Source: Chiloscyllium plagiosum (taxonomy: Eukaryota). Taken from it: 39,121 nucleotides of DNA. The notes below the pieces were generated by a model that saw only the letters and a program-made list of their open reading frames with translations, was not told the origin of the DNA and ran no database searches. This document shows, one piece after another, positions 4,047-32,391 of the stretch (position 1 is its first letter; each line of letters begins with the position of its first letter). The translations under genes were made by a program, and so were the position numbers. The stretch lies in assembly GCF_004010195.1 (NCBI RefSeq), contig NC_057718.1, positions 88,165,780 through 88,204,900 on the forward strand. The letters are read 5' to 3'.

Positions 4047-4251
4047 AGAAAGTGAGGACTGCAGATGCTGGAGATCAGAGCTGAAAAATGTGTTGCTGGA
4101 AAAGCTCAGCAGGTCAGGCAGCATCCAAGGAGCAGGAGAATCGACGTTTCGGGCATAAGCCCTGAAGAAGGGCTCATGCCCGAAATGTCGGTTCTCCTGC
4201 TCCTTGGATGCTGCCTGACCTGCTGCGCTTTTCCAGCAACACATTTTTCTA
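4047..4251. mobile_element. Fold-back (palindromic) Penelope-like terminal-repeat insertion
   Basis: Inverted arms of ~80 bp around ~4165; TSD CTCCAGAAGAGG at 4035-4046 and 4252-4263. Confidence 0.85.
4162..4189 (+). ncRNA. Minimal hammerhead motif at the centre of a fold-back insertion (stem III CpG decayed)
   Basis: CTGAAGA-A-GGGC tcat GCCC-GAAA-TGTC. Confidence 0.65.
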
Positions 4252-4567
4252 CTCCAGAAGAGGCCTCATCACTTCTTGTACGACCTCAACATGACGTCCC
4301 AACTCCTATACTGAAAGATCTCAGCAATAAAGACAAGTGTTCTCAACACCTTCTTAGCCACCCTAGCTATATATGATGCAAACTTCAAAGAATTATGGAC
4401 TAGAACACCAAGTCTCTCTGCTCTACAATACTTCCCATGACCCTACTTTTAGTTGTATTCGTCCTGCTTTTGTTTGTTTTGCCAAAATACAATACTTCAA
4501 TTTATCCAAAATTAAACTCCATCTGCTGCTCAAGGTCTCTTTGTAATCTTAGATAACCTTCTTCACT

Positions 4568-4767
4568 CCCACCAAAAGAGAAAATGCTGGAAAATCTCAG
4601 CAGGTCTGGCAGCATCTGTAAGGTGAGAAAAGAGCTGACGTTTCGAGTCTAACTGACCCTCGAAATGTCAGCTCTTTTCTCACCTTACAGATGTTGCCAG
4701 ACCTGCTGAGATTTTCCAGCATTTTCTCTTTTGGTTTCAGATTCCAGCATCCGCAGTAATTTGCTTT
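4568..4767. mobile_element. Fold-back insertion of the U3-A8 family terminal repeat
   Basis: Near-perfect inverted arms ~4572-4645 and ~4658-4734; TSD TAACCTTCTTCACT at 4554-4567 and 4768-4781. Confidence 0.85.
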
Positions 4768-5541
4768 TAACCTTCTTCACTGTCCACCATACAACCAATC
4801 TTGGTGTCATCCACAAACTTACTAACAATGCCTTCTATATTCTCATCCAAATCATTTACATAAATGACAAACAAAAGTGGACCCAGCACCGGTCCCCATG
4901 GAACACTGCTGGCCACAGGTTTCCAGTCCAAAAAGCAACCATCACTCTCTGTCTCCTGCCATTAATCTAATTTTGGATCCAGTTGTGTGTGTGTGTGTAT
5001 ACATATATAGAGAGAAAGAGAGTACCAAGATTCTTGTAATCAAGGAAAGATTACCTGACATATATCCTTTACATATTCATACACAAGAATCTTGGTACCA
5101 TTCTGCCTGAAAGTATCCCCCTCACTGCTTTGCTTTGAAAAGCAATATTGTCATTTACAGCTAAAAGTATCCACCACTTGACCTTCCTAAATTGGAAATC
5201 CCTCCTGATATTTCAGCTATACAGGAGTGTCCAATTGCTATTCCAGTTTATAGTCCAAACAGGAAAAATACATTGTCCCATACACTTTAGGTTCTCCATG
5301 TTTCTGTTCTAGTTTTTGAATGCTCCTTTTTTCTATTAGTTATGACTTTAAATGCTTCAAGAAGTAACTTGTAACTTATTCTCTCTCTTTCCACACCTAC
5401 ATTTATAGCAAGTTTTAAGTATCACTTTTGCAGATGAGGGTTTAGTGAGGGGTCTGTTTCAAAAGAAGTTGTAAAATTCAGTAGTAACACTCCGGAGAAG
5501 ATCTAAATAAAAAGGTGAGAATCCAACCTAAATTATGTATA

Positions 5542-5866
5542 AAAGCAAATTCTGCCCTCTGCTTCTGCCCTCCCCTCTGCTTCACCCATCCCCCACATAT
5601 TTTGTCACATAGCACTGGCTTCAGCCTTGGTCATTCACAGCTCCTAATCTCTTTATAATCTCTTTATGCACTGTCATTATCACCTCTTTATTGCTACCTT
5701 TGCTTCTGGAGCCACGACTCACCTTCTCTCAGCCTAGTATTTCTCTATTTCTCCCTTTTTTTAGCTTTGACAAAGGGTCAGTTAGACTCGAAACGTCAGC
5801 TCTTTTCTCTCTTTACAGATGCTGCCAGACCTGCTGAAATTTTCCAGCATTTTCTCTCTTTGGGTT
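5542..5866 (+). mobile_element. Penelope-like terminal-repeat insertion (U3-A8 family)
   Basis: TSD CTAAATTATGTATA at 5528-5541 and 5867-5880; begins with a 10-nt inverted copy of the family 3' end (AAAGCAAATT). Confidence 0.8.
5763..5801 (+). ncRNA. Minimal hammerhead motif with U3-A8 core variant
   Basis: AGCT-TTGACAA-A-GGGTC agtta GACTC-GAAA-CGTC-AGCT; stems I and II pair fully. Confidence 0.7.
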
Positions 5867-6174
5867 CTAAATTATGTATATATTTGTGATGGTGTCAGTA
5901 TTTTAAGGACTTGTCTTTGATAGTCGCTGTTGTTTCTTTTTCATAATACATTTATACAGCTTTACGTTTTTTATTGAGTGTTTTTGACTGGACAAATGCA
6001 AAATTTGTAACCTCGTATTCTGCCTTGGTTGCAATTATTAATCTAGACCCCCTTCATTCACACATAGTTTTGTACCAGGAAGGGATGGATTTCTTGTAGT
6101 TGATTGACATCAGTTGATTCTCATTTGAGCATTGATCAGGTTGGCTAGCTCCCTGTTAGGTTAAGCAGGAGGCT

Positions 6175-6775
6175 AGCAGAACACAACAAGCCAGACAGCA
6201 TCAGGAGGTGGCAAAGGCAACATTTCGGGTAGAACGCTTCTTCAGGACTTGGGGTGAGTGTAAGGGGAGCTGCAGATAAAGGGGGTGGGGTTGGGGGTGA
6301 GATAGGAACAAGTTGAACACAGGTAGAGGGTATGACCTGATTGGTTGATGGGACGAATGAATCCAGCTGATAGCTGGAAGGAAGGGCCGGTGAGAGGAAT
6401 GGAAGGAAGGGGGCGGGGTTGGGAAGGAAGTCAGGGAATGGGAAGGGAGGTTATTTGAAACTGGAGAACTCAATGTCGGCTGCCCAGGCGGAAGACGAGG
6501 TGTTGTTCCTCCAATTTGCGGTTTGGTTCAATGTGGCAATGGAGGAGGCCAAGGGTGGCCATGTTGAAGAGGGAATGTGAAGGGGAATTAAAATGGACGG
6601 TGACTGGGAGGTCAGGTAGGCTGAGAAACTCGGCAAAACATGCTGAGTTTACATCTGGTCTCCCAGGCACCTTCCCCTGCAAACCATTCCCTTCAGCAAT
6701 CCTTGGTTGGTGCCAGTCTCCCCACCACTCCCCCCCCCCCCCCCTCGAACCTCCAGACACCTTCGCCTGCAACAT
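6175..6775 (-). mobile_element. Penelope-like (Neptune-type) fragment with GIY-YIG C-terminus and decayed hammerhead (6219-6245); short inverted piece at ~6660-6775
   Basis: LPVTVHFNSPSHS...LGLLHC...RKLEEQHLVFRLG on the minus strand, homologous to 15890-16110. Confidence 0.75.
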
Positions 6776-7567
6776 GTATCCAGTTAGGACATCCAGTTCA
6801 ACTGAGAAGTTGAATTCTGAATTGGTGTGAATAGGACTGAACTAGTCCTAGGAGGAGATGTCAGGACTCCTATGGCACAGTGCTAAAGCTCCTATATCTG
6901 AGTCTGGAAGCCTAGATTCATGTCCCACCTGCTCCCTAAATGTGTGAGATAACATCTTTGGAAAGGTTGATCAGAAAATATCCAAAAGGAGGTGTCAGTT
7001 TTCTTACTTTTGTGTTTCCTTAAGATCTTCTTATAAATCTAATTCTGGCCAGGTTTTGTTGTTCCCTCACTTTTCCAATATCTATGTAGTCTGGTGTCAA
7101 ATATTATTCGATAACACTACCATTAAGCATCTTGGAATGTTTTACAATGTTAATGGTTCCACATAAATGAAGTTGATTCTTGTTCAGTTAGGAGTCCTCA
7201 ACCTGAGTGTGCATTGCTGTTTGAAAACTGTCTTCTTCTACAAAATGTTTAATCACATAATTCTACACCAACTGTTTGTGGAATGAAGACAGAAATGAAA
7301 AGTAAAGTGTTTGCCTCCTCTCTCATTTTGTGTCTGGAATGCAGAATATTAAATTAGACTGCATGTGACTAATTGCTTTAAATGGTGAAACCCGTGATGT
7401 CTAATGCAGAATATTTCAAAAGACAAAGTTCGTATTAAAATGCTGAATCTGTCTTAAATGGCAGATTTCTCCAAGAATAGGATGGGATCTCTCTCTCTGC
7501 TCTGGTTTACAAGCATCTTGGAAAATGTTCATCTCTCATGAAGCTCATAATATAATTATTTCAGGGA

Positions 7568-7750
7568 ATCATAGAATCCCTACAGTGTGGAAACAGGCCA
7601 TTTTGGCCCAACAAGTCCACACCGACCCTCTAAAGAGTAACCCATTCAGATCTATTCCCCTACCCTAATATTTGCCCCTGACTAATGCATCTTGCCTACA
7701 CATCCCTGAACACTATGGGCAATTTAGCGTGGTCAATTCACCTAACTTGC
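7568..7750 (-). mobile_element. Partial HE1-like SINE (3' half)
   Basis: Reverse complement of the tail of the 2967-3343 SINE. Confidence 0.8.
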
Positions 7751-8007
7751 AGAAGGTATGGTACTCGAGGTCTTAAAATGCTTAAAGATAGATAAATGCT
7801 TGGGACCTGATCAAGTGTATTTCAGGACATTGTGGGGAGCTAGGGAAGAAATTATAGGCCCCCCGGGCAGAGATATTTATATTATCTACAGCCACAGGTG
7901 AGGTAATGGAGGATTGGAGCATGGCTAATATTGTGTCTTTACTTAAGTAAGGCTGCAAGAAAAAGCCAGGGAACTATAGATCAGTGCGCCTGATATCAGT
8001 GGTGGGT

Positions 8008-8175
8008 GAGAGTCGAAAAGTGTGGTGCTGGAAAGGCACAGCCGGTCAGGCAGTATTTGAGGAGCAGGTGAGTCGACTCTCCTGTTCCTCAGATGCTGCC
8101 TGATCTGCTGTGCTTTTCCAACACTGCACTTGTTGACTCTGATCTCCAGCATCTGCAGTCCTCACTTTCTCCTAG
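8008..8175. mobile_element. Fold-back Penelope-like insertion centred on GAGTCGACTC
   Basis: TSD TCAGTGGTGGGT at 7996-8007 and 8176-8187; inverted arms meet at 8074/8075. Confidence 0.85.
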
Positions 8176-8311
8176 TCAGTGGTGGGTAAGTGGTTGGAGG
8201 GGAGTCTGAGTGATAGGATTTATGTGCATTTGGAAAGGCATGGACTGGTTAGAGATAGTCAGCATGGCTTTGTGTGTGGGAAATTGTGTCTCATAAACTT
8301 GACTGAATTTC

Positions 8312-8339
8312 CTGATGAAGGGCTTTTGCCCGAAACGTC
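8312..8339 (+). ncRNA. Minimal hammerhead ribozyme motif
   Basis: CTGATGA-A-GGGC tttt GCCC-GAAA-CGTC at the 5' edge of a ~130 bp insertion into a CR1 fragment. Confidence 0.72.
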
Positions 8340-8599
8340 GACTCTCCTGCTTCTCGAATGCTGCCTGACCTGCTGTGCTATTCCAGCACCACACTCTTGA
8401 CTCTAATCTCCAGCATCTGCAGTCCTCAGTTTTGTTGAATTGTTTTGAGGATATGTCCAAGAAGGATATGAGGGCAGAGCAGGAGACGTTGTCTACATGG
8501 ACTTTATCAAGACCTTCAACAAAGTTCCGCATGGTAGACTGGTTTGTAAAGTTAGATCACGTGGGATCCTGAGTAAAAAATAATTTCTCATTTTTGTTC

Positions 8600-9135
8600 T
8601 AAGTGCCTTTCCCCCCCACAATTTGGAAACTGTATCCCAAGGTTGTAGATTCCCCAACCTGGAAATCATCTTACCTGCATCTACCTTGCCTATCCTTTAT
8701 ACATTTTGTAAATTTCAATTAGATCACCTCTCCTTTTTTGAAACAGTAGAGAATAAATATAGATCCAGTTTCCCCAATCTCTCTTCATTGGGCAGTTCTG
8801 CTATCCTGGGAACAAAACTATAATCTTTTTTGTACTGCTTCTGTGGCAATAATATTCTCCACAAGGTAAGACGACAAAAACTGCACATAGTACTCCAGGT
8901 GCAATCTAAACAAGGATCTAAACAACTGAAGTAAGACTTTGCTACTCATGTACTGAAATCCCCTTGTGATAAAGAATTACATACCAGGAACCTTCCTAAT
9001 TGCCTGATGAACTTGTGTGTTAGCCTCCAGTGATGCATTGACAAGGACACCCAAGTTCTTCTGTATATCTACACTTTCCAACCTCTCACCATTTCAGATA
9101 TAGTCTACACATTTCATCCTACCAAAATGGATAAC
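8600..9135 (-). mobile_element. Decayed CR1-like fragment
   Basis: aaaactgcacatagtactccagg and neighbouring motifs parallel the other minus-strand CR1 copies. Confidence 0.65.
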
Positions 9136-9171
9136 TAGTCTACCTAACCCTTTTAATACCTCTCATAAGTC

Positions 9172-9580
9172 AGCTGTGACTCAGTTCTGGTATTGCTGCC
9201 ACTGGGTCATGAGATTCTGGTCTCTAGTCCCACTCCAGTGCTTTAAAACAAGAATTAAGGATGGCATTCCAGCGCAGTGTCAGGGGTGCGGTCTTTCAGA
9301 TAAGGATGTTAAACTATGCTCCCTTCTGCCCTTTTAGGTTGATATAAAACATCCATTATTGCTATATTAAAATGGAGCAGTGGAATTATTCCCATTGTCT
9401 TGGCCAACTTCTATCCTTTAATTAACATCAGAAAATGATTTAGTAATCGTCATATTGTTGTTTATGAAAGCTCATTATTTGCAAGTGTACTGTTGTGTTT
9501 CCTACAATGAACATAGTTCACAGGTCGTTTAGCAACTTTTAAGCATTTTGTAAGATCCTATGATTGCAAAATTAAATAAG
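9172..9580 (+). mobile_element. Old Deu-domain SINE (SacSINE1/AmnSINE1-like)
   Basis: ggtgcggtctttcagat...gttaaac...tgtcttggccaa...tgtttcctaca pattern resembles the Deu core as recalled; related fragments at ~18640-18740 (-), ~24820-24900 (+) and ~34545-34815 (-). Confidence 0.6.
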
Positions 9581-10119
9581 TGCACTTTAAACAATATTTA
9601 AATGCTGCAGAGAAAATGCAGCACTAGAATACCAACTTCGACCAGTTACAAGGTAGTTTATGGTTTTGTAATTAAAAATAATCAGAATAGTTTGTGATAA
9701 AGCAGTATATATAATATGCAGTAGGAAGAATAACTGCCTCTGAAACTCAAGTTCCACCAGAATAATGCTGGGAAGTTTTAAGATTAATATAGACTAATGA
9801 ATCCACCACATTTTAAACAATTCTGAGGCTGACAACAGTTTGAAGCAGTTGCTTAGGATTTGAGAAGAATTGGTTGGTGCTGAGGCTAAGCTAGTGTAGG
9901 TCTCCTTTAACAGAATCAGGGGAGGCATTGTTGAGGGTAGAAGGTGTTGGCAGTATTGAATGGGTAGCTGAACACATGGGGATAGAATCACTGAGATCTA
10001 CAGCACAGAAAAAGGGCCTTTAGTCCATTGTTCCATGCCAGACAAAAAATCCAACTAATCCCATTTGCCAACATTTGGCCCATTTACTTGTGCACATGAG
10101 ATACCAAGACATACATCTA

Positions 10120-10990: not shown

Positions 10991-10994
10991 ACTT

Positions 10995-11945
10995 CATATC
11001 ATTATGAAGTGAGATCCAGATTCCCATCATCCTCTGGGAAAAATATATATTCCTCACACCTCCTCTTAACCTTCCGCCCCTTAACTAATCTATGTCTCCG
11101 GTCATTGATCCATCCACCAAGGGAAAACAACTTTTCTTCCTGTCTATGCCACTTATAATTCTATATATGGGCAGCACAGTGGCTCAGTGGTTAGCACTGC
11201 TGCCTCACAGCACCAGGGTCCTGGGTTTGATTCCCACCTGTCTCTGTGGAGTTTTCACATTCTCCCTGTATCTGCTTGGGTTTCCTCTGAGTGCTCCGGT
11301 TTCCTCCCACAATCCAAAGATGTGCAGGTCAGGTGAATTGGCCTTGCTAAATTGCTCACAATGTTAGGTGTATTAGTCAGGGGTAAATAGCAGGTAGGGG
11401 AATGGGTTTGGGTGGGTTTCTCTTCAGAGGGGCAGTATGGACTTGTTGGGCCGAAGGGCCTGTTTCCATACTGTAGAGAATCTAATCATAGAATCTAATA
11501 TCTCAATCATGTCCTCCCTCAGTCTCCTCTGTTCATTGGAAGCAACACAAGTTTATCCTATCTCTCGTTGTGCGTAAACCTGTACAGCCCTGGCATCATC
11601 AAGGTAAATCTCCTCTGCACCACCTCCAGTGCAATCACGTCCCTCCTTTAATGTTGATTCTAGAACAAGGGTTTGTCCTTCCCCAACTGCACCACTTCAC
11701 ATTTATTCAGTTGAATTTCTTTTGCCACTATCAGCCTGTCTAAATCCTCCTGTAATCTCAGGCTATATTCAGGCTCACTGTCTACCACCCTTTTGTATCA
11801 GCTGTAAATTTCCTGATCAACCCGACGAAATTCAAGTGCAAATCATTTAGACAAACTGCAGACAGGAAGGGGCCACTGGACACAGGTTTCCGGTCACAAA
11901 AACATCCTTTAACCATCGCCCTCTGTTTCCGGCCACTCACCCAAT
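10995..11945 (-). mobile_element. Decayed CR1-like fragment abutting the promoter, split by a SINE
   Basis: Motifs parallel to the 3423-4985 copy (aaatctcctctgcac, atcatttagacaaa, ccactggacacagg). Confidence 0.6.
11169..11499 (+). mobile_element. HE1-like tRNA-derived SINE
   Basis: GGGCAGCACAGTGGCTCAGTGGTTAG head, B-box-like GGTTTGATTCC, GAATCTAAT tail repeats. Confidence 0.88.
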
Positions 11946-11949
11946 TCCC

Positions 11950-12500
11950 CTGGTGGTGGGCGTGACCAGGGGCTAGAGGGTGTGGTCACGGGCGGAGTTT
12001 GGGATTAGGGCGGGGTCAAGGTAGGGAATAGTGCGCGGACTTGAGGTTAGAGGGCGCGGAAAGGCGACGGAGGAGGCGCGGCTAAGTGCGAGAGGAGGAG
12101 GCGTGAATAAGGGCTGGTGTTGATGGCGGAGGGGAGGTCCAGCGGGCGGGACTAGGAGCGAGGGGGCGTGGCCAGAGGCGGGATGGGGGTGTGTCCACCG
12201 CTGAAGCGGCGGGAAATGGGGCCGGTTTAGTCTCGGGTGCGCAAGCTCGAGCTACTTCAGTTTTTTGTTCGCCGCGAGCTCGAGGTTGAACCATGTGGAT
12301 GTCGTTAGCAACGAGAGGCCGGGGGGCAGCGGCGGCGGTCACAGCCGGCGGAGTCACCTGGTGTGGGCTGCCGGCCGGCCTCCGGGGCTGTGCTCAACGG
12401 TTACCGGCCATCGGCATCAAGGATGAACTGGCACCGGGATCCGGTACCAGGGTGAAGAGGAGCGTTAGGTAAGCCTGGGACCTTTCCGGTGTGACCTGGG
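11950..12500 (+). promoter_or_regulatory. CpG island / TATA-less GC-box promoter of MTHFD1L
   Basis: The clearest non-repeat CpG-dense stretch; several Sp/KLF boxes (GGGCGGAG ~11990, GGGCGGGG ~12008, GGGGCGTGGC ~12163); overlaps exon 1. Confidence 0.85.
12293..12468 (+). CDS. MTHFD1L: MTHFD1L coding exon 1 (N-terminal mitochondrial presequence-like region)
   Basis: ATG in ACCATG context inside the CpG island; reads MWMSLATRGRGAAAAVTAGG...GTRVKRSVR; donor AG|GTAAGC at 12468/12469; its phase 2 matches exon 2. Confidence 0.85.
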
Positions 12501-13800: not shown

Positions 13801-13834
13801 ATTAAGATGGCTCAGGGAAGTGGAAGGGAACATT

Positions 13835-14022
13835 CTCCTCCAAGTCCCCCCTCCCTACCTTTTATCTTCTCCTGCTGAACACTCTCTGCTCATTCCTGAA
13901 GAAGGGCCTGTGCCCGAAACGTCGAATCTCCTGTTCCCTGGATGCTGCCTGACCTGCTGTGCTGTTCCAGCAATAAAGTTTCAACTTTGATCTCCAGCAT
14001 CTGCAGTCCTCACTTTCTCCTC
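13835..14022 (+). mobile_element. Penelope-like terminal-repeat insertion with intact hammerhead
   Basis: Family tail ...ctgcagtcctcactttctcc; flanking GAACATT at 13828-13834 and 14023-14029. Confidence 0.8.
13892..13927 (+). ncRNA. Intact minimal hammerhead motif, sense strand of MTHFD1L intron 1
   Basis: ATTC-CTGAAGA-A-GGGC ctgt GCCC-GAAA-CGTC-GAAT; 4-bp stem I, GUC triplet. Confidence 0.78.
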
Positions 14023-14653: not shown

Positions 14654-16419
14654 GAGAAAGTGAGGAGTGCAGATGCTGGAGACCAGAGTTGAAAAGTGTG
14701 GAGCTGGAAAAGCACATCAGGCCAGGCAGCTTCCGAAAGCAGGAGAGTCGACGTTTCTGGCATACACCCTTCTTAAGGAATGAGGCTGGTGTGCCAAGCG
14801 GGCTGAGATAAAAGGTGGGGGGGATTTGTGGGAGGGGCGCTGGGAATATGATAGGTGGAAGGAGGTGAAGGTGATGGGCTGGAGAAGGGGTGGGGGCAGA
14901 GAGGTCGGGAATAAGATTGCAGGTCAGGGTCCCAATAAGGAAGAATAGGTGTTCTTCATCCAGGCATTGAGTGGCTAGGGTTTGGTGATGGAGGAGGCCC
15001 AGGACCTGCATGTGTTTGGCAGAGTGGGAGGTTGTCCTAGAAATGATTTGCCAGTTGGCGTCTTGTCTCCCCAATGTAGAGGAGACCACATCAGATACAA
15101 CAGATGCAGCAGATGACGTGTGTGGTAGGACAGGTACATTTCTGTCAGATATTGAAGGATGGTTTGGGGCCTTGGATGGAGGTGAGGAGGGAGGTTTGGG
15201 CGCAGGTTTTGAACTTCATGCAATGGCAGGGGAAGGTGCCAGGAGGGGAGGGTGGGTTGGTGGGGGGCATGAACCTAACAAGGGAGGCACAGAAAGAATG
15301 GCCTCTCCAAAATGCAGATAGAGATGGGGAGGGAAATATATAGCTGGTAGTGGAGTCTGTTTGTTGTTGGAAAAGGCAGAAGATGATGTAGTGTATCTGG
15401 AGATTGGTGGGGTGGAAGGTCAGGACCTTGTTGCGGTTGGAGAGGTAGGGTTCAAGGGCGGAGGTACGGGAAGTGGAGGAGATGAGGTGGAAAGTGCAGG
15501 AAGTGGAGGAGATCCCATATTCCCAATTCCTTCGCGTCCGCCGCATCTGCTCCCAAGAGGACCAATCCCACTACCGAACAGCCCAAATGGCCTCCTTCAA
15601 AGACCGCAATTTCCCCTCTGACGTGGTCGATGATGCACTTCACTGCATCTCCTCCACTTCCTGCACCTCTTCCCTTTAACTCCGCCACTCCAATTGCCAC
15701 CAGGACAGAACCCCACTGGTCCTCACCTTCCACCCCACCAACCTCCGGATACATTGTATCATCCTCCATCATTTCTGCTACCTCCAAACAGACTCCACCA
15801 CCAGGGATATATTTCCCACCCCTATCAGGGTTCCGGAGAGACCACTCCCTCCGTGACACCCTCGTCAGGTCCACACACCACCTACTTGCAGAACGTTTCA
15901 GGGAACACCTCTGGGACACCCGCACCAACCAACCCAACTGCCCTGTGGCTGAACACTTTAACTCCCCCTCTCACTCCGCCAAGGACATGCAGGTCCTTGT
16001 CCTCCTCCATCACCAGACCCTGGCCACACGACGCCTGGAGGAAGAGCGCCTCATCTTCCGCCTAGGAACCCTCCAACCACATGGGATGAATGTAGATTTC
16101 TCCAGTTTCCTCATTTCCACTCCCCCCACCTTATCTCAGTCCCAACCCCTGAATTCAGCACCGTTCTCTTGACCTGCAATCTTCTTCCCAACCTTTCTGC
16201 CCCCACCCCCTCTCCGGCCTATCACCCTCGCCCTCACCTCCTTCCACCTATCGTATTCTCAGCCCCCCTCCCCCAAATTCCCTCCCCACCTTTTATCTCA
16301 GCCCGCTTGGCACACCAGCCTCATTCCTGAAGAAGGGCTAATGCCCAAAACGTCGATTCTCCTGCTCCTCAGATGCTGCCTGCCTGCTGTGTTTTTCCAG
16401 CACCACACTTTTCAACTCC
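14654..16419. mobile_element. 1.77-kb inverted two-arm Penelope-like (Neptune-type) element: minus arm 14654-~15512, plus arm ~15513-16419
   Basis: IPYSQFLRVRRICSQ (RT C-terminus) and LAERFREHL...PVAEHFNSPSHS...RRLEEERLIFRLGTLQPHGMNVDF (GIY-YIG C-terminus); decayed hammerheads at ~14750-14777 (-) and 16327-16354 (+); TSD ACTCTCAAAAAG at 14642-14653 and 16420-16431. Confidence 0.88.
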
Positions 16420-16597
16420 ACTCTCAAAAAGTCAACATTCCAGGCAAAGTGGAAGAAATGCTCCAGAGATACTTTGAAGGTCTTTTTGGAGGATTGGGGC
16501 ACTGATTTTAATGATTGGAAGAAGTTTACCATTCAAAGTAGTGATAATTTGACCACTTAAGTGCCATGATGTTTTCAGTCTCAAAATCTTAATGATG

Positions 16598-18200
16598 TGG
16601 AGACAGTAAGGTCTGCAGATGTTGGAAATGAGAGTTGAGAGTGCGTTGCTGGAAAAGCACAGCAGGTCAGGCAGCATCCGAGGAGCAGGAAAATCGACTT
16701 TTCGGTCTGGAGCCCTTCATCAAGAAAGGAAACGAAGCAGACCAAATCGTCTAAACTGTCCAAAGGGGTTGTTCCCTCTGTGATACACTGGTCCAAACCT
16801 GTGTCACTCTAATGATTCCTCTCCCTCCCAGAGCATCTTCCCATGCAATCACAGAAAATGTAACACTGGGCTTTTTATCTTCTCTCACTGTCCAAGGCAT
16901 TGCAGCACCTTTTGGCAAAGCTGTAGTTTACTTGTACTTCATTCAATATAGGCAACTGTTTTCACACTAGAGCCTCATCTTCATTGTGTAGACCAAATGC
17001 ATACTGAATGAACACCTTGCAGAACATCTCCACTCAGTCTGCATGCAGAATTCTCACCTTCTGCTTGCTTAGCATTTCAATAAAGAGTGGTTGCAAACAA
17101 GGAATGAAAAGGAAGCAGACCAAAGTGACTGTTGACCATCAGTGTTTCAGAGGAGTTCTGTCTGTGACACTGCTTCACCCCTCTATCACCCTATCAACTC
17201 CTCTCCCTCCCAGATTGCTCTTGTGCTTACATTTCTATACTAAGAATGACTGATGCACTATTCCAGTGGAGCTCATCCCAACTCAAGGAACAGCTCCTCA
17301 ACATTGAGTTCAACAAATTCAGACCGTGAAACATGTCCTCTATTGTGTATTTTCTTTCTCTAGTGTCTGTATCTTGTTTTTGTGTTCTCGCTTTGTCAGA
17401 GCTGACTTATAGTCTATTAACATCTACACTGGACCATTGCTTTTTGTTCTTTATAATCATATTTGCTCCAATTGTCTTTTGTTCTAGATATCTGATTCCT
17501 AAATTCCTTGCCGTGTAACTTTTCTCTGACTGTCTCTCTTTCACCATTACCTCGTCAGTGTGGTAGGCCCAGTGGGGAAAGATGGCACCTGAGGATTGAC
17601 GACTTTGTTAGTTGTGTCCAGTGCTGATGATGGCAGAAGGACATCGCAGTGACATTGAGACAGGCCAAGCAGTGAGAGATGCAACTCTGATGTGGGTTGG
17701 TCTGGTGCAGGCAGTGGCAAGGTGGCGGCGGAGGAGTATCAGCCCAGCTCTAAATGATGGTGCCTGAAGATCGACAACTTCATTGGTTGGGTCTGGTGTA
17801 GACGACAGCGAAGTGGTTGAGGAAGGATGGTGGTGCAAGCCTCTTTGCTGATAAACTGACTCAGTACTGATGGACTGTCTTTAAGCTTTTTTTTTAAATT
17901 CTTATTCTTTAATTATTCAAAATGGTGACAGATTGTGGTGACAAATGAAAGCTTCTTAGTGTATTTTATTGTATTCTTGCTGTAAAATTCACATGACAAT
18001 AAAATCATTTATCATTTTATCTCCATCTTTCTCCAACAGCATAAACTCTCATTATTTTTCCAACCCCCTCAGTGCTTCAGAGAAGTCATATTGGACTCCA
18101 TGTTAACTCTGTACTTCCAAATAAATTTGTTGGACTGTAACCTAGTGTTGTGATTTTTAACTTTGTCCATCCCAGTCCAACACCAACACCTCTACATCTG
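16598..18200. mobile_element. Cluster of decayed Penelope-like fragments (16598-16725 minus; ~16770-18110 plus, interrupted) with an unclassified retroposon at ~17560-18015
   Basis: Similarity to the 14654-16419 arms; the insert ends in ATGACAATAAAATCATTTATCATT. Confidence 0.5.
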
Positions 18201-19323: not shown

Positions 19324-19408
19324 GCAAATAATCCTGAATTGTAAAACAGAATTGGCAGATTTACAGAAAACTGAGCCGCGCTTTCACCCGGGACTGGCCA
19401 TTGTTCAG
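19324..19408 (+). CDS. MTHFD1L: MTHFD1L coding exon 2 (85 bp)
   Basis: ctctcccttag| acceptor, CAG|GTTTGT donor; encodes (R)QIILNCKTELADLQKTEPRFHPGLAIVQ, resembling the ...FKPVLAIIQ region of human MTHFD1L as recalled. Confidence 0.92.
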
Positions 19409-21554: not shown

Positions 21555-23118
21555 TGTTATGATTATGGATCAGAATTCCAAAGTACTGTGGGCGTTTTAA
21601 ACTTGCAATTCTAAAATATGTGTTTTTTGCCAAAAAAGCTGTAGATGTAAATTAAGTGACTGGCTGGAGAGAGAGATTCACAGTATATCTCACCTAAAGA
21701 TGTGACAGAATCTTCAAACTTCAAGTCAAAATAGCCTGCGATCTCTCGTCTGCAAAGATATCAAGGAGCAGATAACCCGCTGCTCCCCAGTAAGCTACCT
21801 TCTGATTATGCCCCAAACTGAATGCTTCTTTTGTATTTACCCTCTGAATAACACACACAGGCAGGCATTAAAAAGCTAGCTTCATCACTTAACATGGGCT
21901 AGCGGGACTGAACTTTGTGTACACCAACCTGGGTTTGAGTGACAGCACGCTGAGAAGATCACAATCGTAGAGTTGTGCTCTAGAATGTCTGGACTCAAAA
22001 TGAAGAGAGATTGAACTATTATGATTTGGACTAATATTTACTGGACTTTAGAAGAATGCGGGAAGCTTTCATAGAAACCGATAAAATTCTGACAGGATAA
22101 ATACATGAAGGATGTACCTAATGACTGGGGGATCCAAAACCAGGGCTCACAGTTTAAGGATAGGCCCATTGGGACAGGGATAAGGAGAATGTTTTCACCC
22201 AGATAGTGGTGAGCCTGTGGAAGTCTCTGCCACATAAAATGGTTGAGGCCAAAATCTTGAATGTTTTCAAGAGGTAATTAGAAGATGTACACTCACCCTC
22301 TTGTCCCTGTCTCACCCTCTTGTTGCTGTCTCTGGCACACTTTTGCATCACTTCTGAGGAAGAGTCGCTTGACCTGTATCGTTAACTGTGATTTCTCTCC
22401 ACGGATGCTGTCAGACCTGCTGAGCTTTCCAAGCTGTTTCTGTTTATTTCTGATTGACAGCATCTGCAGTTTTTCAGTTTTTACTTAGGAACCAGGTATA
22501 ATTATTTGGGGCTAAAGGAATCAAAGGGTATAGGGATAAAAGGGGAACCGGGTACTAAGTTGGATGATCAGCCATGGTTATATTCAATTGCGGAGCAGAT
22601 TTGAATGGCTGAATGACCTACTCCTATATTCTATGTTTCTAGTTACCCCTGCATTGCAGGGAGAAGCGACTTGAATTTTGAATGCTAGAAGTCAACTCAG
22701 TAGGAGGTCAAACAACAAAGGATCCTTTCTTGCCTAAATGTTAGAATTGGATCACAGTCAAAACTAGTCATAGCAACAGAATCTCAACCAAAGCCCAAAA
22801 CTAAGAATCTTGAAATTGAAATTAATTACATCAATACAACTGGTAACTTGCAGCGCTGCAGCAGCGTTTAAGTATCTGCTGTTTGAAAATTTATCTGTAT
22901 GTCTTTTATTTAACTCTTATCGTTTTGGACTCGTTTCTTATGTTTGTTATTTAATTAATTCTTCTTGTGTTTAAATAATAAACTCCATACTTTGTTAACT
23001 CAAGAAAGCTTTGTCAGTGAGAAGGTTTTCCAGAAGGGAAAGGTCTGCTTTTAAATTAACCCTATGATGAATCAAAGAAAAGGAAGCTACAGAAAAACTC
23101 CCATCTAAAACCATAACA
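21555..23118 (+). mobile_element. Possible LTR (TGTTATG...CATAACA) containing a nested CR1 3' end (~22035-22640) and a terminal-repeat fragment (~22285-22490)
   Basis: 7-bp perfect terminal inverted repeat with TG..CA ends, AATAAA near 22977, followed by AATGG; no TSD seen. The nested CR1 is clearer than the LTR. Confidence 0.4.
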
Positions 23119-23227
23119 AATGGAGGAATCTAACCTTGAATTTGAGCATAACAGCACCTGTACCTTTAACAATTGAAGTTACATCTTTTGAGGGTATTGG
23201 ACTACAGCAGGAGAAGCCCCTGATCTA

Positions 23228-23440
23228 GGGCAGCAATGTGGCTCAGTGGTTAGCACGGCTGCCTTACAGCACCAGGAACCCGGGTTCGATTCCAGCCTCA
23301 AGCGACTGTCTGTGCGGACACATTCTTTCTGTATCTGTGAGGGTTTCTTCCCACAATCCAAAGATGTGCATGTTAAATTGCCTATGGTGGATTTGATGTG
23401 CCAAATGCCTGCTTCCACACTGTGGATTTTATGATTCTAG
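23228..23440 (+). mobile_element. Internally deleted HE1-like SINE
   Basis: GTGGCTCAGTGGTTAG A-box and GGTTCGATTCC B-box; ATGATTCTA tail. Confidence 0.8.
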
Positions 23441-24270: not shown

Positions 24271-24917
24271 CTCTCTGTCTCTCTTCCTCATTGCTGCCAT
24301 TTTTGTCACTACTCTCTCCCAGCTACTTTTTCCTTGAGTAGGTTTCTGATCCTGCAATTCACCAAGTTAAATTCTTCGCTAGTTTGCTACTGGCCTTATA
24401 ATTCCTCCAGCTGGTAGCTAAGAAGGTGCAGCTCCTCAATGCTCCTGGGTTGATTCCTGACCAATGCCAACAAGGAGCAGGATGCTTCTTGATCTGCTGT
24501 GCTTTTCCAGTGCCACACTTTTTGACTCTGATCTCCAGCATCTGCAGTCTTCACTTTCTCCCAATTCAAACAAGACCGCTTCCTGACTTACCAATCAGTG
24601 AGAAAGCTTTTCCCATCCTCCATGCCGAAGATGTTTAAATCACTGATGTCAAGATTATGCATGCAACCATGCAAATAAGAAAGTAATTGGCAAGGTCCTC
24701 ACAGTGTGATCCAAGACACTCATATTGCCAACCAGAAAACAGACTTGCCTTAGTTTTGTTGACTACACATTGTCAGATAAGTGACTTTTGTATCTACACT
24801 ATTAGTTCAATAAGGCAGATAGTTGTGGGTTCAGATCCCCCTCCAAAGATTTGAGCACAAGAATATAAACCGGCTCCAGCATTGTGCTGAAGGAATGCTC
24901 CTTTATTAGAGAAGCAA

Positions 24918-25797
24918 TTCAAAGTTTGTGAGAAGATTTGTAGCTCGGGTGCTCGTTGCTGTGGTTCGTGTCGTTTCGTGTTTTGTGCAGTCCTTGCATG
25001 GGATTTTGTACACTACATTAGTTTTTCTCATGCTGGGTATCGGGTCCTTCGTCCTGGTGAGTTGTTGTCTGAAAGTGGCTATTGGTTTGTGTTCTGTTAT
25101 AAGTCCTAGTGGTCGCAGTCGTCTGGCTGTCAGTTCAGAGATGTTCTTGATGTATGGTAGTGTGGCTAGTCCTTTGGGTTGCGGCATGTCCTCGTTCTGT
25201 TGTCTTTCCCTTAGGCGTCTGTTGATGAAATTGCGAGGATATCTGTTTTTGGCGAATACCTTGTATAGGTGTTCCTCTTCCTCTTTTTGCAGTTCTGGTG
25301 TGCTGCAGTGTGTTGTGGCCCTTTTGAATAGTGTCTTGATGCAACTTCGTTTGTGTGTATTGGGATGGTTGCTTTCATAGTTCAGGATTTGGTCTGTGTG
25401 TGTGGCTTTCCTGTGTACCTTAGTGGTGAATTCTCTGTACCCTCGCGTCTAGGAATGGGAGTTGGTTGTCCTTTTCTTCCTCTCTCGTGAATCGGATTCC
25501 TGTGTGTGGAGTTGATGATCCGGTGTGTTTTCTCTATTTCCGTGTTTTTAATGATTACAAAGTTTGGGTTGAATTTGTGGTAAGACTGTTTGTTCTAACC
25601 TTTGCATTACTGCTTCTGCTATGAATCCTGAGATCGGTGAGCCCATGGGTGTTCCGTTGATTTGTTCGTATATCTGGTTGTTGAATGTGAAGTGTGTTGT
25701 GAGGCACAAGTCCAGTAGTTTAAGTATGCCGTCTTTGTTGATGGGTTCAACGTCCTGTTGTCTGTTATGTCTGTTCAGCAGGTTGGCTATTGTTTCT
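24918..25797 (-). mobile_element. Penelope (Poseidon-type) element fragment: RT C-terminal half, start of GIY-YIG, terminal-repeat end
   Basis: Minus strand QIYEQINGTPMGSPISGFIAEAVMQRLE...LPYIKNISELTARRLRPLG...KTNVVYKIPCKDC; end shared with 3863-3913. Confidence 0.9.
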
Positions 25798-26435: not shown

Positions 26436-27036
26436 TGTTATGGACTAGGCCAGACCACTCAAAACATTCTTAAGCTGGCAGCCCCAGACTATAACTTTGC
26501 AATTTGTTTTGGTAAGTGTACAGTGAAAATTACCTGGAGTAAGATAGCTAGGTTGACGACTAGATTTTAAAAACAGACAAAAGTTTATGCACAAAATTAC
26601 GCAATGAAACATAAAGAACCCCTACAGAACTCACCCTATCTAACTAGACTTAATTATGCTGTGCTGAATATATAATAGTCCCAATAAGCAAACTCCCTTT
26701 TTAAAAGAAAACAGTATAAATGGAACATATGCTTACAGATTGAAGTTGAAGGGCAGAAAAGAGTGAGTTTCCACACTGCTCTCTTTTGAACTTGCCAGTT
26801 CAAGACCGAACTAAAACTGCTCAGCTCAGCTAGAGAGCTGGCCACTCCCCCCTCTTTATAAAGGTCAACTCATCTGCTGACAAAAGGCCTCTCAAAATCC
26901 TTTTCATCTCTGTACCAAGCCAGACTGATTGGAGCTTGGCCTGGTTTATTGCCCCTCTGAAAAAAATCAAGGATAGAGTCTCCTTGAGCTAAGGAACAGC
27001 TTTTTTTTTAAAAAAAGAGGGACTAGCTTTGTGACA
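26436..27036 (-). mobile_element. Solo LTR-like element (~600 bp)
   Basis: TGTTA...TGACA termini; 4-bp flanks AATC/GATC; interrupts a LINE 3' fragment. Orientation is tentative. Confidence 0.55.
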
Positions 27037-27039
27037 GAT

Positions 27040-27800
27040 CTTTGTCATGCCATGTCAGACCACTCTTGCAGTGTTATTAAGGAGGGAGTTCCGGGACTTT
27101 GACCTAGCAACAGTGAAGGAACAACTATATAGTTCAAGTCAAACAGCAGTGTTCCCATACATCTGCCTTTATTCTTCTAGGTAGTAGAAAGTTTTGAGTA
27201 TGGAATATCCTGCAGAAGGAGTTTTGTTTTGCTGCCGTACACCTTGGTAAATTGTACATCTTACAGCTGAAGTGTACTGATAGTGGATAGACTGCCAAAC
27301 AAGTGGACTGCTTCATCCAATATAACTTTGAGCTTCTTGAGTATTATTTGAACTGCACTTATGGAGGAAGATAGAGAGCATTTAGTCATACTCCTGACAT
27401 GCCTTGTAAACTATGGGCATGCCTTTGGGAGTTAGATAAGTTGTTAATTACAGAATTCCCAACGTCTGATCTCTTTTAACCTTTTTCTATTCATGGGATA
27501 TGGGTTTCACTCGGTGCACCACCATTTGTAACAATGCCTTGTTGTCCATGGGAAGATGGTAGTGAGCTACTGTCTTGAACTGCTACAATCAACTTTGTGT
27601 ATGTAGACCCACGATATTGTTGGGAATGATGTTCCAGAATTTTGACACTCCAACTATAAGATAATACCAATACATGTTTAAGTCAGGATAGTAAGCGTCT
27701 TGGAGGGGAGCATGAAATTGGTGGTGTTTCTATGTGTCTTACCCGCATCCTTCTAGATGGTAATGTCTTCGGGTTTGAAATGTGCTGTCTAAGGCACTTT
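27040..27800 (-). mobile_element. Decayed LINE 3' fragments (CR1/L2 group), same family as 775-950 and 38375-38965
   Basis: Shared gagctactgtcttgaactgc...gaattttgac...gtggtgtttc...gggtttgaaa motifs. Confidence 0.6.
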
Positions 27801-27809
27801 GTTGATTTT

Positions 27810-28037
27810 CCCCAACAAAAAGAGATGTTGCTGAAAAAGCTGAGCAGGTCTGGCAGCATCTGCGAAGAGAAATCACAGTTAGCATTTTAGGTTAGGTCCA
27901 GAACAGTTCTGAGGAAGGGTCACCAAACCCGAAACATTAACTCTGATTTCTCTTCACAGATGTTGCCAGACCTGCTGAGTTTTACCAGCAACTTCTAAAT
28001 TTGCCCCTGATTTACAGCATCTGCAGTTGTTTTAGTT
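27810..28037. mobile_element. Fold-back Penelope-like insertion
   Basis: Inverted arms around ~27890-27930; TSD TTTGTTGATTTT at 27798-27809 and 28038-28049. Confidence 0.8.
27905..27942 (+). ncRNA. Minimal hammerhead motif, another family (stem III decayed)
   Basis: AGTT-CTGAGGA-A-GGGT caccaa ACCC-GAAA-CATT-AACT; stem I AGTT/AACT. Confidence 0.65.
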
Positions 28038-31000
28038 TTTGTTGATTTTATGCTGTGAATGTTTTTAAATGGTTAAAAATGCAGAAAGAGGATATCCAAG
28101 ATGGTGGTGATCTAAGAAGATCGCACTGCAGACCTCCGCAACGCAGCACAAGTGGGACGAACCTTCAACCTGTCCAACCCGAACCATCGTGATATCTTGG
28201 GACTCCGGAAAGATCTGGAGTCCCAAGAAACTTCTAAAAGTTATCTTACCTGCGTTTCCAGCCATCCAGAGATGCTGATAAAGGGAGGAGTGTCCAAGGC
28301 TGGCCTGTGGCCCAGCCTGCAGGATCCTCTGAGTCGATTACTTTCCAGGCCCTGGTGAACGAGCTTGTGAAATCTCAAGCGATGCTGGGGAAACAGATTA
28401 AAGAGAAGCTGGCTCCAATCTCTCTCATGCTGCAGAAGCATGAGCAGCAGCTGGGAGACCTGAAGAAGAGGACAGATGAGGTGAAGCACAGGGTCATAGT
28501 GGTGGAAGCTGATGCCAGTTCATCCAAAGATAGAATCCAAGCCCTAGAGACGCAGGTTCGTAATTTGCGCAACCAAGTGGATGATCTTGAGAATAGGGGC
28601 AGGAGAAAAAAAATTCAGATCATTGGTCTGCCTGAGGGTAAGGAAGATGAGCGGCCTGTGGAATTTATTGAGGATTAGCTGCTGAAATTCCTTGACTTGG
28701 AGGCTGGCATGAGAGGATTGAAGATAGAGGGGGCTCATCGGGTCACAGCGTGGAGATTGGGTCTGGGTCATCGTCCTCTTCTAGTGCGGTTCCATCATTA
28801 CTGGGATAAGGAGAGTGTCATGGAAGCTTCCAGAATCCAGGGGGCTCTATGATCATGTTCTTTCAGGACCTTTCAGCGGCAGTGATCCAGAAACGAAAAT
28901 CTTGCGTTGGTGTCAAGAGAAAACTGAGGGAGCTTGGGATTCAGTACTCCGAGGTATCTGGCGATGCTTCAGATCACCTTAGATGGATCCATACGTCTGA
29001 GAAGACAAGAGACTTTGTGGACAAATTAACCTAATTTGAACAATTTTAGTATGTATAAATGTTGTTTGGGTATGTCTTTATCGTTTTGTAAAAGGAACGG
29101 AGCAAGTCTGGTTGTAGCTTTAATTTTCTATTTTTTTTCTATTGATAGGAAAAAAATATTGATAGTTTAAACCAAATTATGTTTGGCGGTGGTTGAGATG
29201 TACATTTTCACTTTCTAAGTTAGGATGTACCAAAGGATGGGTGGGGTATTCCTTTTTTTAAAAAAATGTTTTATTCATATTGGTATTCTATGGTGTGTTT
29301 ACTTTTTTTTCTTCTGCTTGTGTTTATGGTGTGGCTCTAGCTGGGAGAAGTGAAGGTGGCTGGGATGTTTAAATGCCTACTTTTGGGTAGTTTGGGATAG
29401 GTAGTTGCCGCCTCTGGGCAGAGGGTGAGTTCCCCCACTCAGCACTGTTAGCACTTTTTATGTTGATAGGTATTTTTTGTTTTTGTTTTTAATTTTTAAT
29501 AGTTTTGTAGGTTTGTTAAATCTAGTGATTTTAGTTTTTGTAGCTTTTATACTTGGTGGATCATGTGGCACTAAGGCTCAGCGATTTGTGGTTCGGGTTC
29601 CTCCTTTCTGGAATCTAAATGTTATTGCAGAAGGTTATGGCTAATGACTTGATTAAATGGTGTACCTGGAATATCAAGGGAAATCACTCTCCAATTTAAC
29701 GGAAGAAGGTAATCTTGAGCCTTAGAAAGGAAAAGGTGGATATTGCCTTGTTACAAGAGACCACTTAGATGACAAGGAGCATCTGAAATTACAGCAGAAT
29801 GGTTTTAACCAAGTTTATTTTTCATCATTTAATACCAGAAGTAGGGGAGTGGCTATATTGGTTAGGAAGAATCTCCCATTTAAGTTGTTAATGTGTTAAA
29901 AACACATACGGGAGGTTTGTAATTCTTAAAGCCTTGATAAATGGGGAAGAATATGGTGTTTTAAATACTTATTGACCTCCAGCTCATTCCCTTAAATTTT
30001 TGGTAGATGCTTTTTCTAAACTGGTAAGTCTCAAGTCCCGGCACATCATTATGGGGGAGATTTTAACTGTCTCATGTATCCCACAGTAGACAGGTTGCCC
30101 AATGGTCCCTCGGTACAAACTAAGCAGTTAGTGGATATGTGTGGGGAGTCAGGGTTGGTGGACGTCTGGAGGCATCTCCACCCTACAGGCAGGGATTTTA
30201 CGTTTTTCTCCGATCCGCACAGATGTCACACTAGGTTTATTTTGGACCCCTGCGGTAATCTTGGATTTGGTGGCATGTTGTACGATTGGTAATATTACCA
30301 TCTTTGATCATGCTCCAGTGTACGTTATGATTAAGGACGTTTACAATGGGTTCAAGGCACTGCCGAATGTATCCCTTTATCCTTGAGGATAATAAGTTTG
30401 TGGAATATTTCTCTCAGGAATTTTGGGCATTCCTAGACATCAACTTTAGGCTCGGTTTGTAGTTCATCTGTCCTCTGGGAAACTGCCAAAGCCTATGCTA
30501 GGGGGTTAGTTATTTCTTACTCTGCCAGTAGGAAGTGGCAGAAGGGGGAGAAGCATGGTTGAAGGCAGCCGAGAAGGCTTACTTTGACTAGACCCTCGTT
30601 GGTCAAACTATAGAGGATTACAGCGCTGCGGTCTGCTTTGAATTCTGTGCTCATGCAGATGGCAAAGAAGAAGCTGGCTTTTGCAAAGCAAAGATTATAT
30701 GATCACGGTGACAAGCCAGGCAAATACTTAGTGTATCTCGCCAGGAAAAGGAGTGCCCACAAGTCATTACAGCAATTAGAGAAGGGTCTGGGAGCCTAAC
30801 ATGTGATTCTAAAAAGATTAATATGGCGTTAGAGATTTTACTCTAAGTTATAACAATCCGACGATTGTGAGGAGGCACAGGCCAAAATTGAATCTTTCTT
30901 TAAGGATCTGAAGCTCCCAGGCGTGACTCCTGAACAAGAGTCCTTTCTGAATATCCCCTTATCAGAGCAAGAAGTGCAGGAAGCTGTGAGGCAACTTCAG

Positions 31001-32197
31001 CATGGAAAGGTGCCCGGTCCTGACGGACTTCACAGTGAATTCTATAAGGAATTTATAAGTATACTGTTAGGCCCGATGCTCCATATTCAATGGTTCATAC
31101 AGTCATGATTGTCTCCCACCATTTATGAGGGGCCAATATTTCACTTATCCTTAAAAAAAGGAGGACCCGGACGACTGTGCTTCGTACAGACCCATCTCAC
31201 TCTTAAATGTGGACTTTAAAAGCTTCTCTAAGGCTCTCATTAAGGTTGGAGACTGTGTTATCTTCTGTTATTAAAGAGGATCAGACTGGCTTCATAACGG
31301 GTTGCAGATCCTCCAATAATGTTAGGAGGCCGCTTTATGTAATTCAAGCATGTCAACAATATCAATACAGGAATTGGTGATTTCTCCAAATGCAGAGAAG
31401 GCATTTGACCAAGTTGAGTGGGCATACCTTTTCTATACTCTGGAGAGATTTGGTTTGGACGAAGTCTTTATAAGATGGGTTCTGTATGGTGGCTCTCTTG
31501 TGACGGTCGTCACCAACTGGGTACGATCAAGCAATTTTATTATTTTTAGGAGCAGCCGGCAGGGCTGTCTCCTTTCACCAATGCTTTTTAGGTTGGTGAT
31601 TGGATCTTTGGCGGAGGCCATTCGTGGAGATCCCAATATATCAGCTCCAGACGTGGGGTCCAAGTTACATAAGATTTTGTTGTATGCAGACGATGTCCTA
31701 GCTTTTTTTTGACAAATCCAGCAGTTTCAGTACCTTGCGCAATGCAATGCATTTGCGCGTTTGGTGCTTTTTCAGGGTACAAGATTAATTTTGTGAAATC
31801 AGGCTATGCCTATGGGTGGTCTTACGAAGGAGCTTGGTCTTGAAGGCGACTATAGATTCCCATTTAGGTGGTCATGGGGGTTTTGTGTATTTGGGCATAT
31901 TCATTACTCCAGTTCTGGATTGACTGTTGAAAGCCAATTTTATCCAATTATTTGATAAAATTAAACGAGACCTTCAAAGATGGGAGGCACTTCCCGTCTT
32001 GTAGTCGGATCGGATAGCGCTTATTAAAATGAATATTCTTCTCCGTTTGCTATACTCTATACGGATGCTCCCCCTGATTTTCAATAAGCAAACATTCAGG
32101 AGGCTGAACAGCTGGTTCAGTTCCTTTATTTGGCATTGTATGCCGCCCCTCATTAAATTAGCTAAACTGCAACTGCCCCACAGAACGGACATTAAAA

Positions 32198-32391
32198 ATT
32201 GAAAAATATGGTGCTGGAAAAACACCGCAGGCCAGGCAGCATCCGAGGAGCTGGAGAATTGACGAAGAAGGGCTTATGCTCCAAACGTCGATTCTCCTGC
32301 TCCTCGGGTGCTGCCTGGCCTGCTGTGTTTTTCCAGCACCACATTTTTCAACTCTGGTCTCCAGCATCTGCAGTCCTCACTTTCTCCTAGT
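32198..32391. mobile_element. Fold-back Penelope-like insertion inside L1 ORF2
   Basis: TSD GGACATTAAAA at 32187-32197 and 32392-32402; arms meet in a truncated hammerhead at ~32260-32290. Confidence 0.85.

Follow-up and report, generated by a model that had tools for sequence, protein, structure and literature searches.

We analysed a window of 39,121 nt from Chiloscyllium plagiosum (NC_057718.1, GCF_004010195.1, positions 88,165,780-88,204,900 of the forward strand), and all coordinates given here are counted from its first base. The window is vertebrate DNA rich in repeats, and the two proteins closest to a repeat-encoded fragment bear bamboo-shark names at their source. Its repeats include short insertions made from the ends of Penelope-like elements (PLEs) that carry a hammerhead ribozyme (HHR) motif, and we name the repeat families A (insertions at 4047, 8008 and 32198), B (4568), C (27810) and D (3798). 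An earlier note on this DNA had described five of these insertions as inverted pairs whose arms meet at the hammerhead, and had proposed that the structure of the ribozyme, or its cut end, sets where reverse transcription stops or switches strand. We find that the ends of the insertions cluster at a sharp edge just ahead of the hammerhead core, an edge that is probably the 5′ end of the element RNA and not a product of the ribozyme.

All four families show the core and stems of a minimal type I hammerhead, namely CUGANGA, a bulged base, stem II, GAAA, a palindromic 15.2-16.2 and a short stem I, as judged against the minimal PLE hammerhead defined by Cervera and de la Pena 2014 (PMC4209133). 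Stem I covaries between families (ATTC/GAAT, AGCT/AGCT, AGTT/AACT and GCA/TGC), stem II is only 4-6 bp long, and both stems form in four of the six copies folded. Counting from the first C of the CUGA core (C3) as position 0, the predicted cut falls after +27 in family A, +30 in B and +29 in C; in the reference arm the motif occupies 16323-16358 on the plus strand, with C3 at 16327 and the predicted cut after 16354. Against the Rfam hammerhead models the whole window yielded no match at gathering, and the part from 3700 to 8500 yielded none at E<=5; a scan for the core motif gave no match in metagenome contigs and none in genome contigs. Minimal hammerheads of this kind self-cleave as dimers or when helped by protein, and the shark motifs are putative ribozymes, predicted by motif.

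Inverted arm pairs are present at all five sites: 4078-4163/4169-4254 (93% identity) at 4047, 4571-4647/4659-4735 (97%) at 4568, 8009-8078/8071-8140 (83%) at 8008, 27816-27897/27922-28003 (79%) at 27810 and 32199-32264/32286-32351 (92%) at 32198. The inserts, of 205, 200, 168, 228 and 194 bp, are abutted by exact target-site duplications (TSDs) of 12, 14, 12, 12 and 11 bp just where the earlier note had placed their ends, which bears out its description of single TSDs of 11-14 bp; among 300 random position pairs scored in the same way, a score of 11 occurred once and a score of 12 never. Family A supplies three of these fold-backs. At 4047-4251 (TSD 4035-4046/4252-4263) the minus-strand left arm, 4047-4163, carries the tail and ends at +7, and the tailless plus-strand right arm, 4161-4251, ends at -1, with a 3-nt overlap at the junction. 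At 8008-8175 (TSD 7996-8007/8176-8187) the tail is on the right arm and both arms end at +25, stopping in a GTCGAC palindrome (8072-8077) that spans the predicted cut. At 32198-32391 (TSD 32187-32197/32392-32402) the tailless left arm ends at +24 and the tailed right arm at +2, with a 1-nt overlap at 32264. The family B fold-back at 4568-4767 (TSD 4554-4567/4768-4781) has a tailless left arm, 4568-4660, ending at +7 and a tailed right arm, 4659-4767, ending at +20, overlapping by 2 nt. The family C fold-back at 27810-28037 (TSD 27798-27809/28038-28049) has a tailed right arm from 27902 (-7) and a tailless left arm whose end is ambiguous, lying at about +14 to +16 or, with an internal deletion, at -3. 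At the 4047 insertion, target and element also share 3-base matches, possibly by chance, at both outer junctions (4035-4047 and 4250-4254).

All five pivots therefore fall inside or beside the hammerhead motif, as had been claimed, and no two are alike across the three families in this window. Both arms are reduced to 65-135 nt, and none of the five insertions retains two whole hammerhead cores. At the junctions the arms overlap by 3, 2, 6, 0 and 1 nt, more than random joins would give (P=0.0018). A feature that the earlier note did not record is that one arm extends 28-39 nt further than the other on the outer side, so that the tail is one-sided in all six full fold-backs, the sixth being the long one described below.

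The ends of the arms are not spread evenly over the element. Fifteen of 25 arms end between -8 and +30 and none between -60 and -9, the copy at 13835 lying just outside at -61. When each insertion is counted once, the most upstream end lies between -8 and +8 in 8 of 19, and the chance of finding eight insertions in any 16-nt window is P 0.0003-0.006 when lengths are modelled as exponential or Pareto with floors of 40-65 nt. The smooth decay that length-only truncation predicts is not seen, given these 8 of 19 insertions, and the peak anticipated at the hammerhead is present as an excess over that model. Within it the sharp edge is at -7 to -2, the 5′ border of stem I, and almost all cores are intact up to the motif. 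We prefer this per-insertion scan because P values for a fixed window counted both arms of one event and used a window chosen post hoc. The counts exclude both tail stubs, the copy of family D at 24918 and two old fragments, near 17040-17340 and near 18060-18120, that are assigned to no family but by eye resemble further Penelope ends; an nhmmer profile scan of the window found no overlooked tail-only or short fragments. A comparison of tailed with tailless arms (lengths P=0.004, positions P=0.17) was dropped as evidence, since picking arms by position forces the result.

Uninverted copies share the edge. A family D stub at 3798-3911 (plus strand) starts at -3 within a 9-bp TSD (3789-3797/3912-3920), and a tailed family A stub at 8310-8435 (plus) starts at -2/-3, as the earlier note had observed for both, the 6-bp TSD of the latter being weak and within the chance range (79 of 300 controls score 6 or more). 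Two further stubs had been missed: a tailed family A copy at 16599-16726 (minus), which starts at -3 and has no clear TSD, and an old family C copy at 2322-2426 (minus), also with no clear TSD, which starts at -7, the same base as the right arm at 27810. The copies cited as counter-examples, reaching further upstream, are real. A tailed family A copy at 13835-14022 (plus) starts at -61, and two tailless copies of family A2 begin at about -220 (105-418, plus, no TSD found) and about -160 (33780-34029, plus, TSD 33766-33779/34030-34043 of 14 bp). A tandem duplication of about 60 nt (1-105) directly precedes the copy at 105. An old A-type copy at 6172-6466 (minus) reaches at least -227, an old tailed family C copy at 22290-22484 (plus) begins at approximately -70, a tailed family A stub at 24480-24561 (plus) starts at +44, downstream of the hammerhead, and a tailless family A2 copy at 38968-39121 (minus) is cut by the window end.

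The link to Penelope-like proteins comes from a sixth, 1.8-kb fold-back of family A at 14654-16419, which the earlier reading had missed. Its minus-strand left arm carries the tail and extends to about 15498, its tailless plus-strand right arm starts at about 15510, and the pivot lies at about 15505, so that the arms end at -693 and -815 upstream of the hammerhead. The arms hold remnants of a reverse transcriptase (RT) thumb, a Zn-finger-like linker and a GIY-YIG domain, and these open reading frame (ORF) remnants are 70% identical over 82 aa to protein P0002. RVT_1 and GIY-YIG matches were obtained in P0002 and in the 894-aa P0005, of which only the P0005 GIY-YIG match exceeds the curated cut-off; the window fragments by themselves gave no GIY-YIG match in the domain search. 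Family A thus has a linked ORF with RT and, at its C terminus, a GIY-YIG domain. Inverted 5′-truncated copies that form a unit within one TSD are found as six full fold-backs and two stub-arm cases, and the tail of 28-39 nt stands on one end only. On these sequence features the families are assigned to the endonuclease-bearing PLEs. No full-length copy, in such elements a partial tandem whose pLTR (pseudo-long terminal repeat) holds the promoter, occurs in the window. Ahead of the GIY-YIG remnant of the left arm at 14654, and likewise in P0002, stands a CxxxxCxxC-like stretch. A Zn-finger-like motif between the RT and endonuclease domains is a trait of the Neptune clade (Craig et al. 2021, PMC8557442), and family A may be Neptune-type and not Poseidon. 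A family D fragment shows a weak RVT_1 match without the Zn-finger linker. In family A (13940-14021 and equivalent positions) an ATG just past the hammerhead opens a frame through the tail, as expected if the pLTR holds the ORF start; the family B frame, by eye, closes within the tail. The TSD of the long fold-back (about 14638-14653/16416-16431, 16 bp with one mismatch) overlaps the element ends, as its target site is similar to the first RT-start region of the element itself, and this insertion is a possible case of homology-assisted priming.

The long fold-back also bears on what makes the inversion. Two further insertions, whose inversion had been overlooked (the first being another of the cited counter-examples), have inverted arms of 13-15 nt that consist of tail only and never reach the ribozyme edge: a family B insertion at 5542-5866 (plus; TSD 5528-5541/5867-5880, 14 bp), in which an inverted tail stub of about 14 nt is followed by a tailless arm from about -215, and an old family C insertion at 37813-37924 (plus; TSD 37803-37812/37925-37934, 10 bp), in which a stub of about 13 nt is joined to a decayed tailless arm. 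Since the 14654 pivot lies some 700-800 nt from the hammerhead, since these arms are inverted over the tail only, and since Naiad PLEs form inverted units without canonical hammerheads (PMC8557442), inversion is independent of the ribozyme, and the proposal that the ribozyme produces it is not borne out.

Beyond the window, we aligned three DNA runs, drawn from three studies under two organism labels, and a single RNA run to the reference 15881-16480 at 80% likeness. In the DNA runs, loose 5′ ends fall at 16323 (-4) in 383, 323 and 407 of 10145, 7558 and 11006 partly aligned contigs, and at 16324 (-3) in 322 and 246 contigs of the first two. The flank at these loose ends is random with an AT-rich consensus (agreement 0.31; median 183-255 nt), and 5 of the 12 joints listed, whose kind is not displayed, end at 16322-16324. 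The cut site (16354/16355) is absent among the 24 of 2279 loose-end positions listed, which are not strictly ranked by count. The RNA run has 117 of 1849 reads with a loose end at 16323 (agreement 0.34). No site at which molecules start or stop in numbers was reported for it, a negative that has no bearing either way, since a poly-A single-cell library is unable to map 5′ ends.

We consider it moderately probable that the fold-backs are 5′-truncated PLE units formed by priming from both target ends, run-off at an RNA 5′ end before the hammerhead, and trimming with joining over overlaps of 0-6 nt; the retro origin claimed for the insertions is in any case supported. Under such a scheme both cut target ends would prime RT inside the RNA, at two sites some 35 nt from each other, and both cDNAs would likely run off the RNA 5′ end just ahead of the hammerhead. 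The two antisense cDNA ends would then probably be trimmed and annealed through their short overlaps, each templating the other. Stubs may arise when RT starts on the 5′-proximal copy of the initiation site, and long copies from the downstream initiation copy in a read-through tandem RNA, truncating at scattered points. The ribozyme would be a passenger beside the RNA 5′ end. In vitro work on the Anolis Poseidon element PAc is consistent with several of these steps: cutting and extension occur on both strands of the target (Frangieh et al. 2024, PMC11167929), RT begins internally at two positions on either side of the tail, and templates shortened at the 5′ end give shorter products. The shark tail asymmetry of 28-39 nt matches the PAc two-start spacing. 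By a hand count on the template in PMC11167929, the PAc RT start zone at ORF nt 111-118 corresponds to about +116 to +123, near the shark tail ends at +123 to +130 from C3.

The RNA 5′ end is most simply a transcription start, a reading for which the evidence is motif-based. A TTTTATCT motif at 16291-16298 (plus), 32-25 nt before the edge, is a candidate TATA-position element; TTATCT stands at -36 to -29 from C3 (25-32 nt before the edge) in all five A-type copies examined, and an initiator-like YYANWYY with its A at -4 is found in four of nine copies. In PLEs whose start site is known, transcription begins within the pLTR at a point upstream of the hammerhead, and in D. virilis Penelope that point is upstream of an intron whose end abuts helix I (PMC2377424, PMC4209133). 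In the Anolis template (PMC11167929) an AT-rich, TATA-like stretch lies, by hand count, some 46 nt ahead of the hammerhead core, a hint that transcription may begin just before this ribozyme as well. A splice acceptor at the edge was also considered, given that the D. virilis intron ends at helix I and that AG stands at -4/-3 in families B, C and D. We rejected it for family A, which has no AG there and in which the loose ends at -4 show random flank and not a shared leader exon. Tentatively, we would go further and suggest that transcription of shark PLEs begins some 4 nt ahead of the core and that the internal RT initiation sites, lying at the extreme 5′ end of each transcript, generate ribozyme stubs and palindromes of 100-230 bp with no special non-autonomous master.

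Several points weigh against run-off at an RNA 5′ end. The start-site argument uses motifs that related copies share by descent. The sequencing runs cover family A only, and the edge in families B, C and D is represented by 0, 2 and 1 window copies; breakpoints in the old copies near 2330, 6190, 22290, 33790 and 37800 were placed by eye. Neither arm is at the edge in the fold-backs at 4568 (+7/+20) and 8008 (+25/+25), the excess of junction overlaps drops to P=0.09 once 8008 is removed, and the arms are mutual best matches in just three of six fold-backs, a result only partly informative given their age. In the runs, the share of ends at the cut site is not bounded by the 24 of 2279 positions listed, ends at 16322 partly reflect diverged subfamilies with a pyrimidine-rich consensus, and the ends at 16332 and 16348 come from clipping where the reference is mismatched. 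Over the ORF region, contigs reach 45-75% of their depth at the hammerhead, a ratio that is not copy number and to which other families contribute; depth was not used as copy number because contig and read depth disagree on this ratio and subfamilies diverge upstream.

Of the alternatives, the best surviving, though unlikely, is that RT or the ribonucleoprotein stalls within the motif on the hammerhead or its dimer and that the stall triggers the join. The shorter arms, ending at +24, +25, +20, about +15, +7 and +7, do lie around stem II, and nearly all cores remain intact up to the motif. A stall is expected at the 3′ side of a helix, at +19 to +31, whereas the sharp edge at the 5′ border of stem I is reached after every intramolecular helix has been copied, and stem II is merely 4-6 bp. 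Trimming and microhomology joining account equally well for the shorter arms, and fold-backs also pivot 700-800 nt away and form in PLEs without a canonical HHR. The idea that ribozyme structure stops RT is therefore weak at best, the clustering near the motif being the part that stands.

Slightly less probable, in our view, is that short non-autonomous masters starting at -4, SINE- or retrozyme-like (SINE, short interspersed element), are mobilised in trans and pass the edge on to their copies, the full element itself then lacking such a property. The very sharp edge and very high copy number are what such masters would give, two family C copies start at the same base, and PLE-derived non-autonomous retrozymes have been proposed (bioRxiv 10.64898/2026.07.22.740005). 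Set against this, the edge is common to families A, C and D, which to judge by their ORF remnants look like different PLE clades, stubs and long copies share cores (the right arms at 32198 and 16424 are 95% identical), and no tandem arrays were seen; an RNA starting at the edge would still be required.

An improbable third possibility is self-priming, in which one nascent strand folds back at a short palindrome, or long palindromes later lose their centre. Arkhipova et al. 2013 (PMC3846280) put forward a self-priming model, on an antisense template, for PLE units of head-to-head form, and the pivots at 8008 and 4047 are palindromic or microhomologous. Yet self-priming gives no account of uninverted stubs that start at the same edge, it leaves unexplained the one-sided tail that two-start biochemistry explains, and the overlaps are only 0-3 nt in four of five cases. 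Least probable is that the RNA is cleaved by the hammerhead and RT copies its 3′ cleavage product to the end, so that arms end at the cut, which would place arm starts at +28 (A), +31 (B), +30 (C) and +34 (D). In its favour, stems I and II can be folded in four of six copies tested, the PAc HHR cleaves with protein present (PMC11167929), and two run-offs at the cut, if joined blunt, would give exactly the junction at 8008. Against it, of the 15 arms that end between -8 and +30, 13 include sequence 5′ of the cut; only the two at 8008 are compatible, and annealing of GTCGAC across the cut explains them equally well, whereas family B has no palindrome at its cut. The cut site does not appear among the loose ends listed, and uncleaved RNA is the dominant PAc substrate, with HHR cleavage mutants inserting normally (PMC11167929).

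The architecture of these insertions is already known, and the sharp 5′ edge is a modest detail, so the gain is incremental. A typical PLE insertion unit is an inverted 5′-truncated pLTR with a one-sided tail of 30-40 bp and a TSD (PMC3846280, PMC8557442, PMC2377424), and hammerheads in animal genomes were reported as mostly solitary, together with opposite-strand pairs 100-700 bp apart (PMC4209133). The shark insertions share with these units the head-to-head arms, a tail on one arm, TSDs of 9-16 bp, pivots with a short overlap or a palindrome, ends that are often 5′-truncated, and both solitary hammerheads and opposite-strand pairs. They differ in that the arms are only 65-135 nt long and their ends cluster 2-7 nt before the core; no description of such a positional peak was found in the literature searched, in which coverage of subscription papers was poor. 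With PAc (PMC11167929) they share cutting and extension of both strands, two RT starts that bracket the tail, a similar hammerhead spacing, a product length that follows the template 5′ end and a dispensable HHR cleavage; inverted units and 5′-end positions are not addressed in the available part of that paper, and PAc is a Poseidon element whereas family A may be Neptune-type. Non-LTR retrozymes (LTR, long terminal repeat) are built as head-to-tail tandems in which every unit has its own hammerhead (bioRxiv 10.64898/2026.07.22.740005). The shark units are likewise short, non-coding and pLTR-derived with a type I hammerhead, but they are head-to-head, mostly hold one whole motif or none, and do not form such tandems.

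Two better-known kinds of element invite comparison. In L1 twin priming each of the two target ends primes a cDNA on the RNA, and these join by microhomology, leaving an inversion within one TSD. There the arms cover different parts of the RNA, whereas the shark arms cover the same part and so make a palindrome. Miniature inverted-repeat transposable elements (MITEs) have terminal inverted repeats flush with a TSD of fixed length, and their copies move as a unit. The earlier description of the insertions as MITE-like holds for size, hairpin shape and high copy number only: their sequence is a PLE end, their termini are offset by the tail and are not terminal inverted repeats, the TSDs vary from 11 to 14 bp, and every pivot differs, so that neither flush repeats with a fixed TSD nor a shared internal structure was found in this window. 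The fold-back hairpins score against many Rfam microRNA models, all below gathering, and such hairpins are prone to mislabelling as MITEs or microRNA precursors.

Should the edge prove to be the RNA 5′ end, breakpoints in the genome would bear on how PLEs finish insertion and on what their hammerheads do: they would be an in vivo readout that separates ribozyme cleavage from transcript structure, cleavage would have no role in setting the insert ends, and the in vitro two-start result would be linked to the long-known inverted units. If transcripts do start at about -4, the thousands of solitary minimal hammerheads in animal genomes would be explained, each fold-back would record two-ended priming by a PLE dimer, and PLE start sites could be read from genomic breakpoints alone.

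The remaining features of the window are incidental to the edge. A family D copy at 24918-25796 (minus) consists of a 50-nt 3′ end joined in the same orientation to an internal fragment running from RT to GIY-YIG, by either a template jump or a deletion. The host gene is presumably MTHFD1L-like, in line with a match of the exon at 36170-36289 to THF_DHG_CYH, below the curated cut-off; its exons lie at 12290-12450, 19324-19408, 34955-35008, 36170-36291, 37421-37520 and 37610-37746, one recognised by THF_DHG_CYH and the rest by eye, and the later insertions lie in its introns. By eye, a decayed, near full-length long interspersed element, which we take to be L1/Tx1-like, occupies 28080-34080 and hosts the insertions at 32198 and 33780. 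Finally, copies of a tRNA-type SINE, presumably resembling the shark HE1 family, are found at 2965-3320, 11170-11490, 23228-23430 and 34180-34482.

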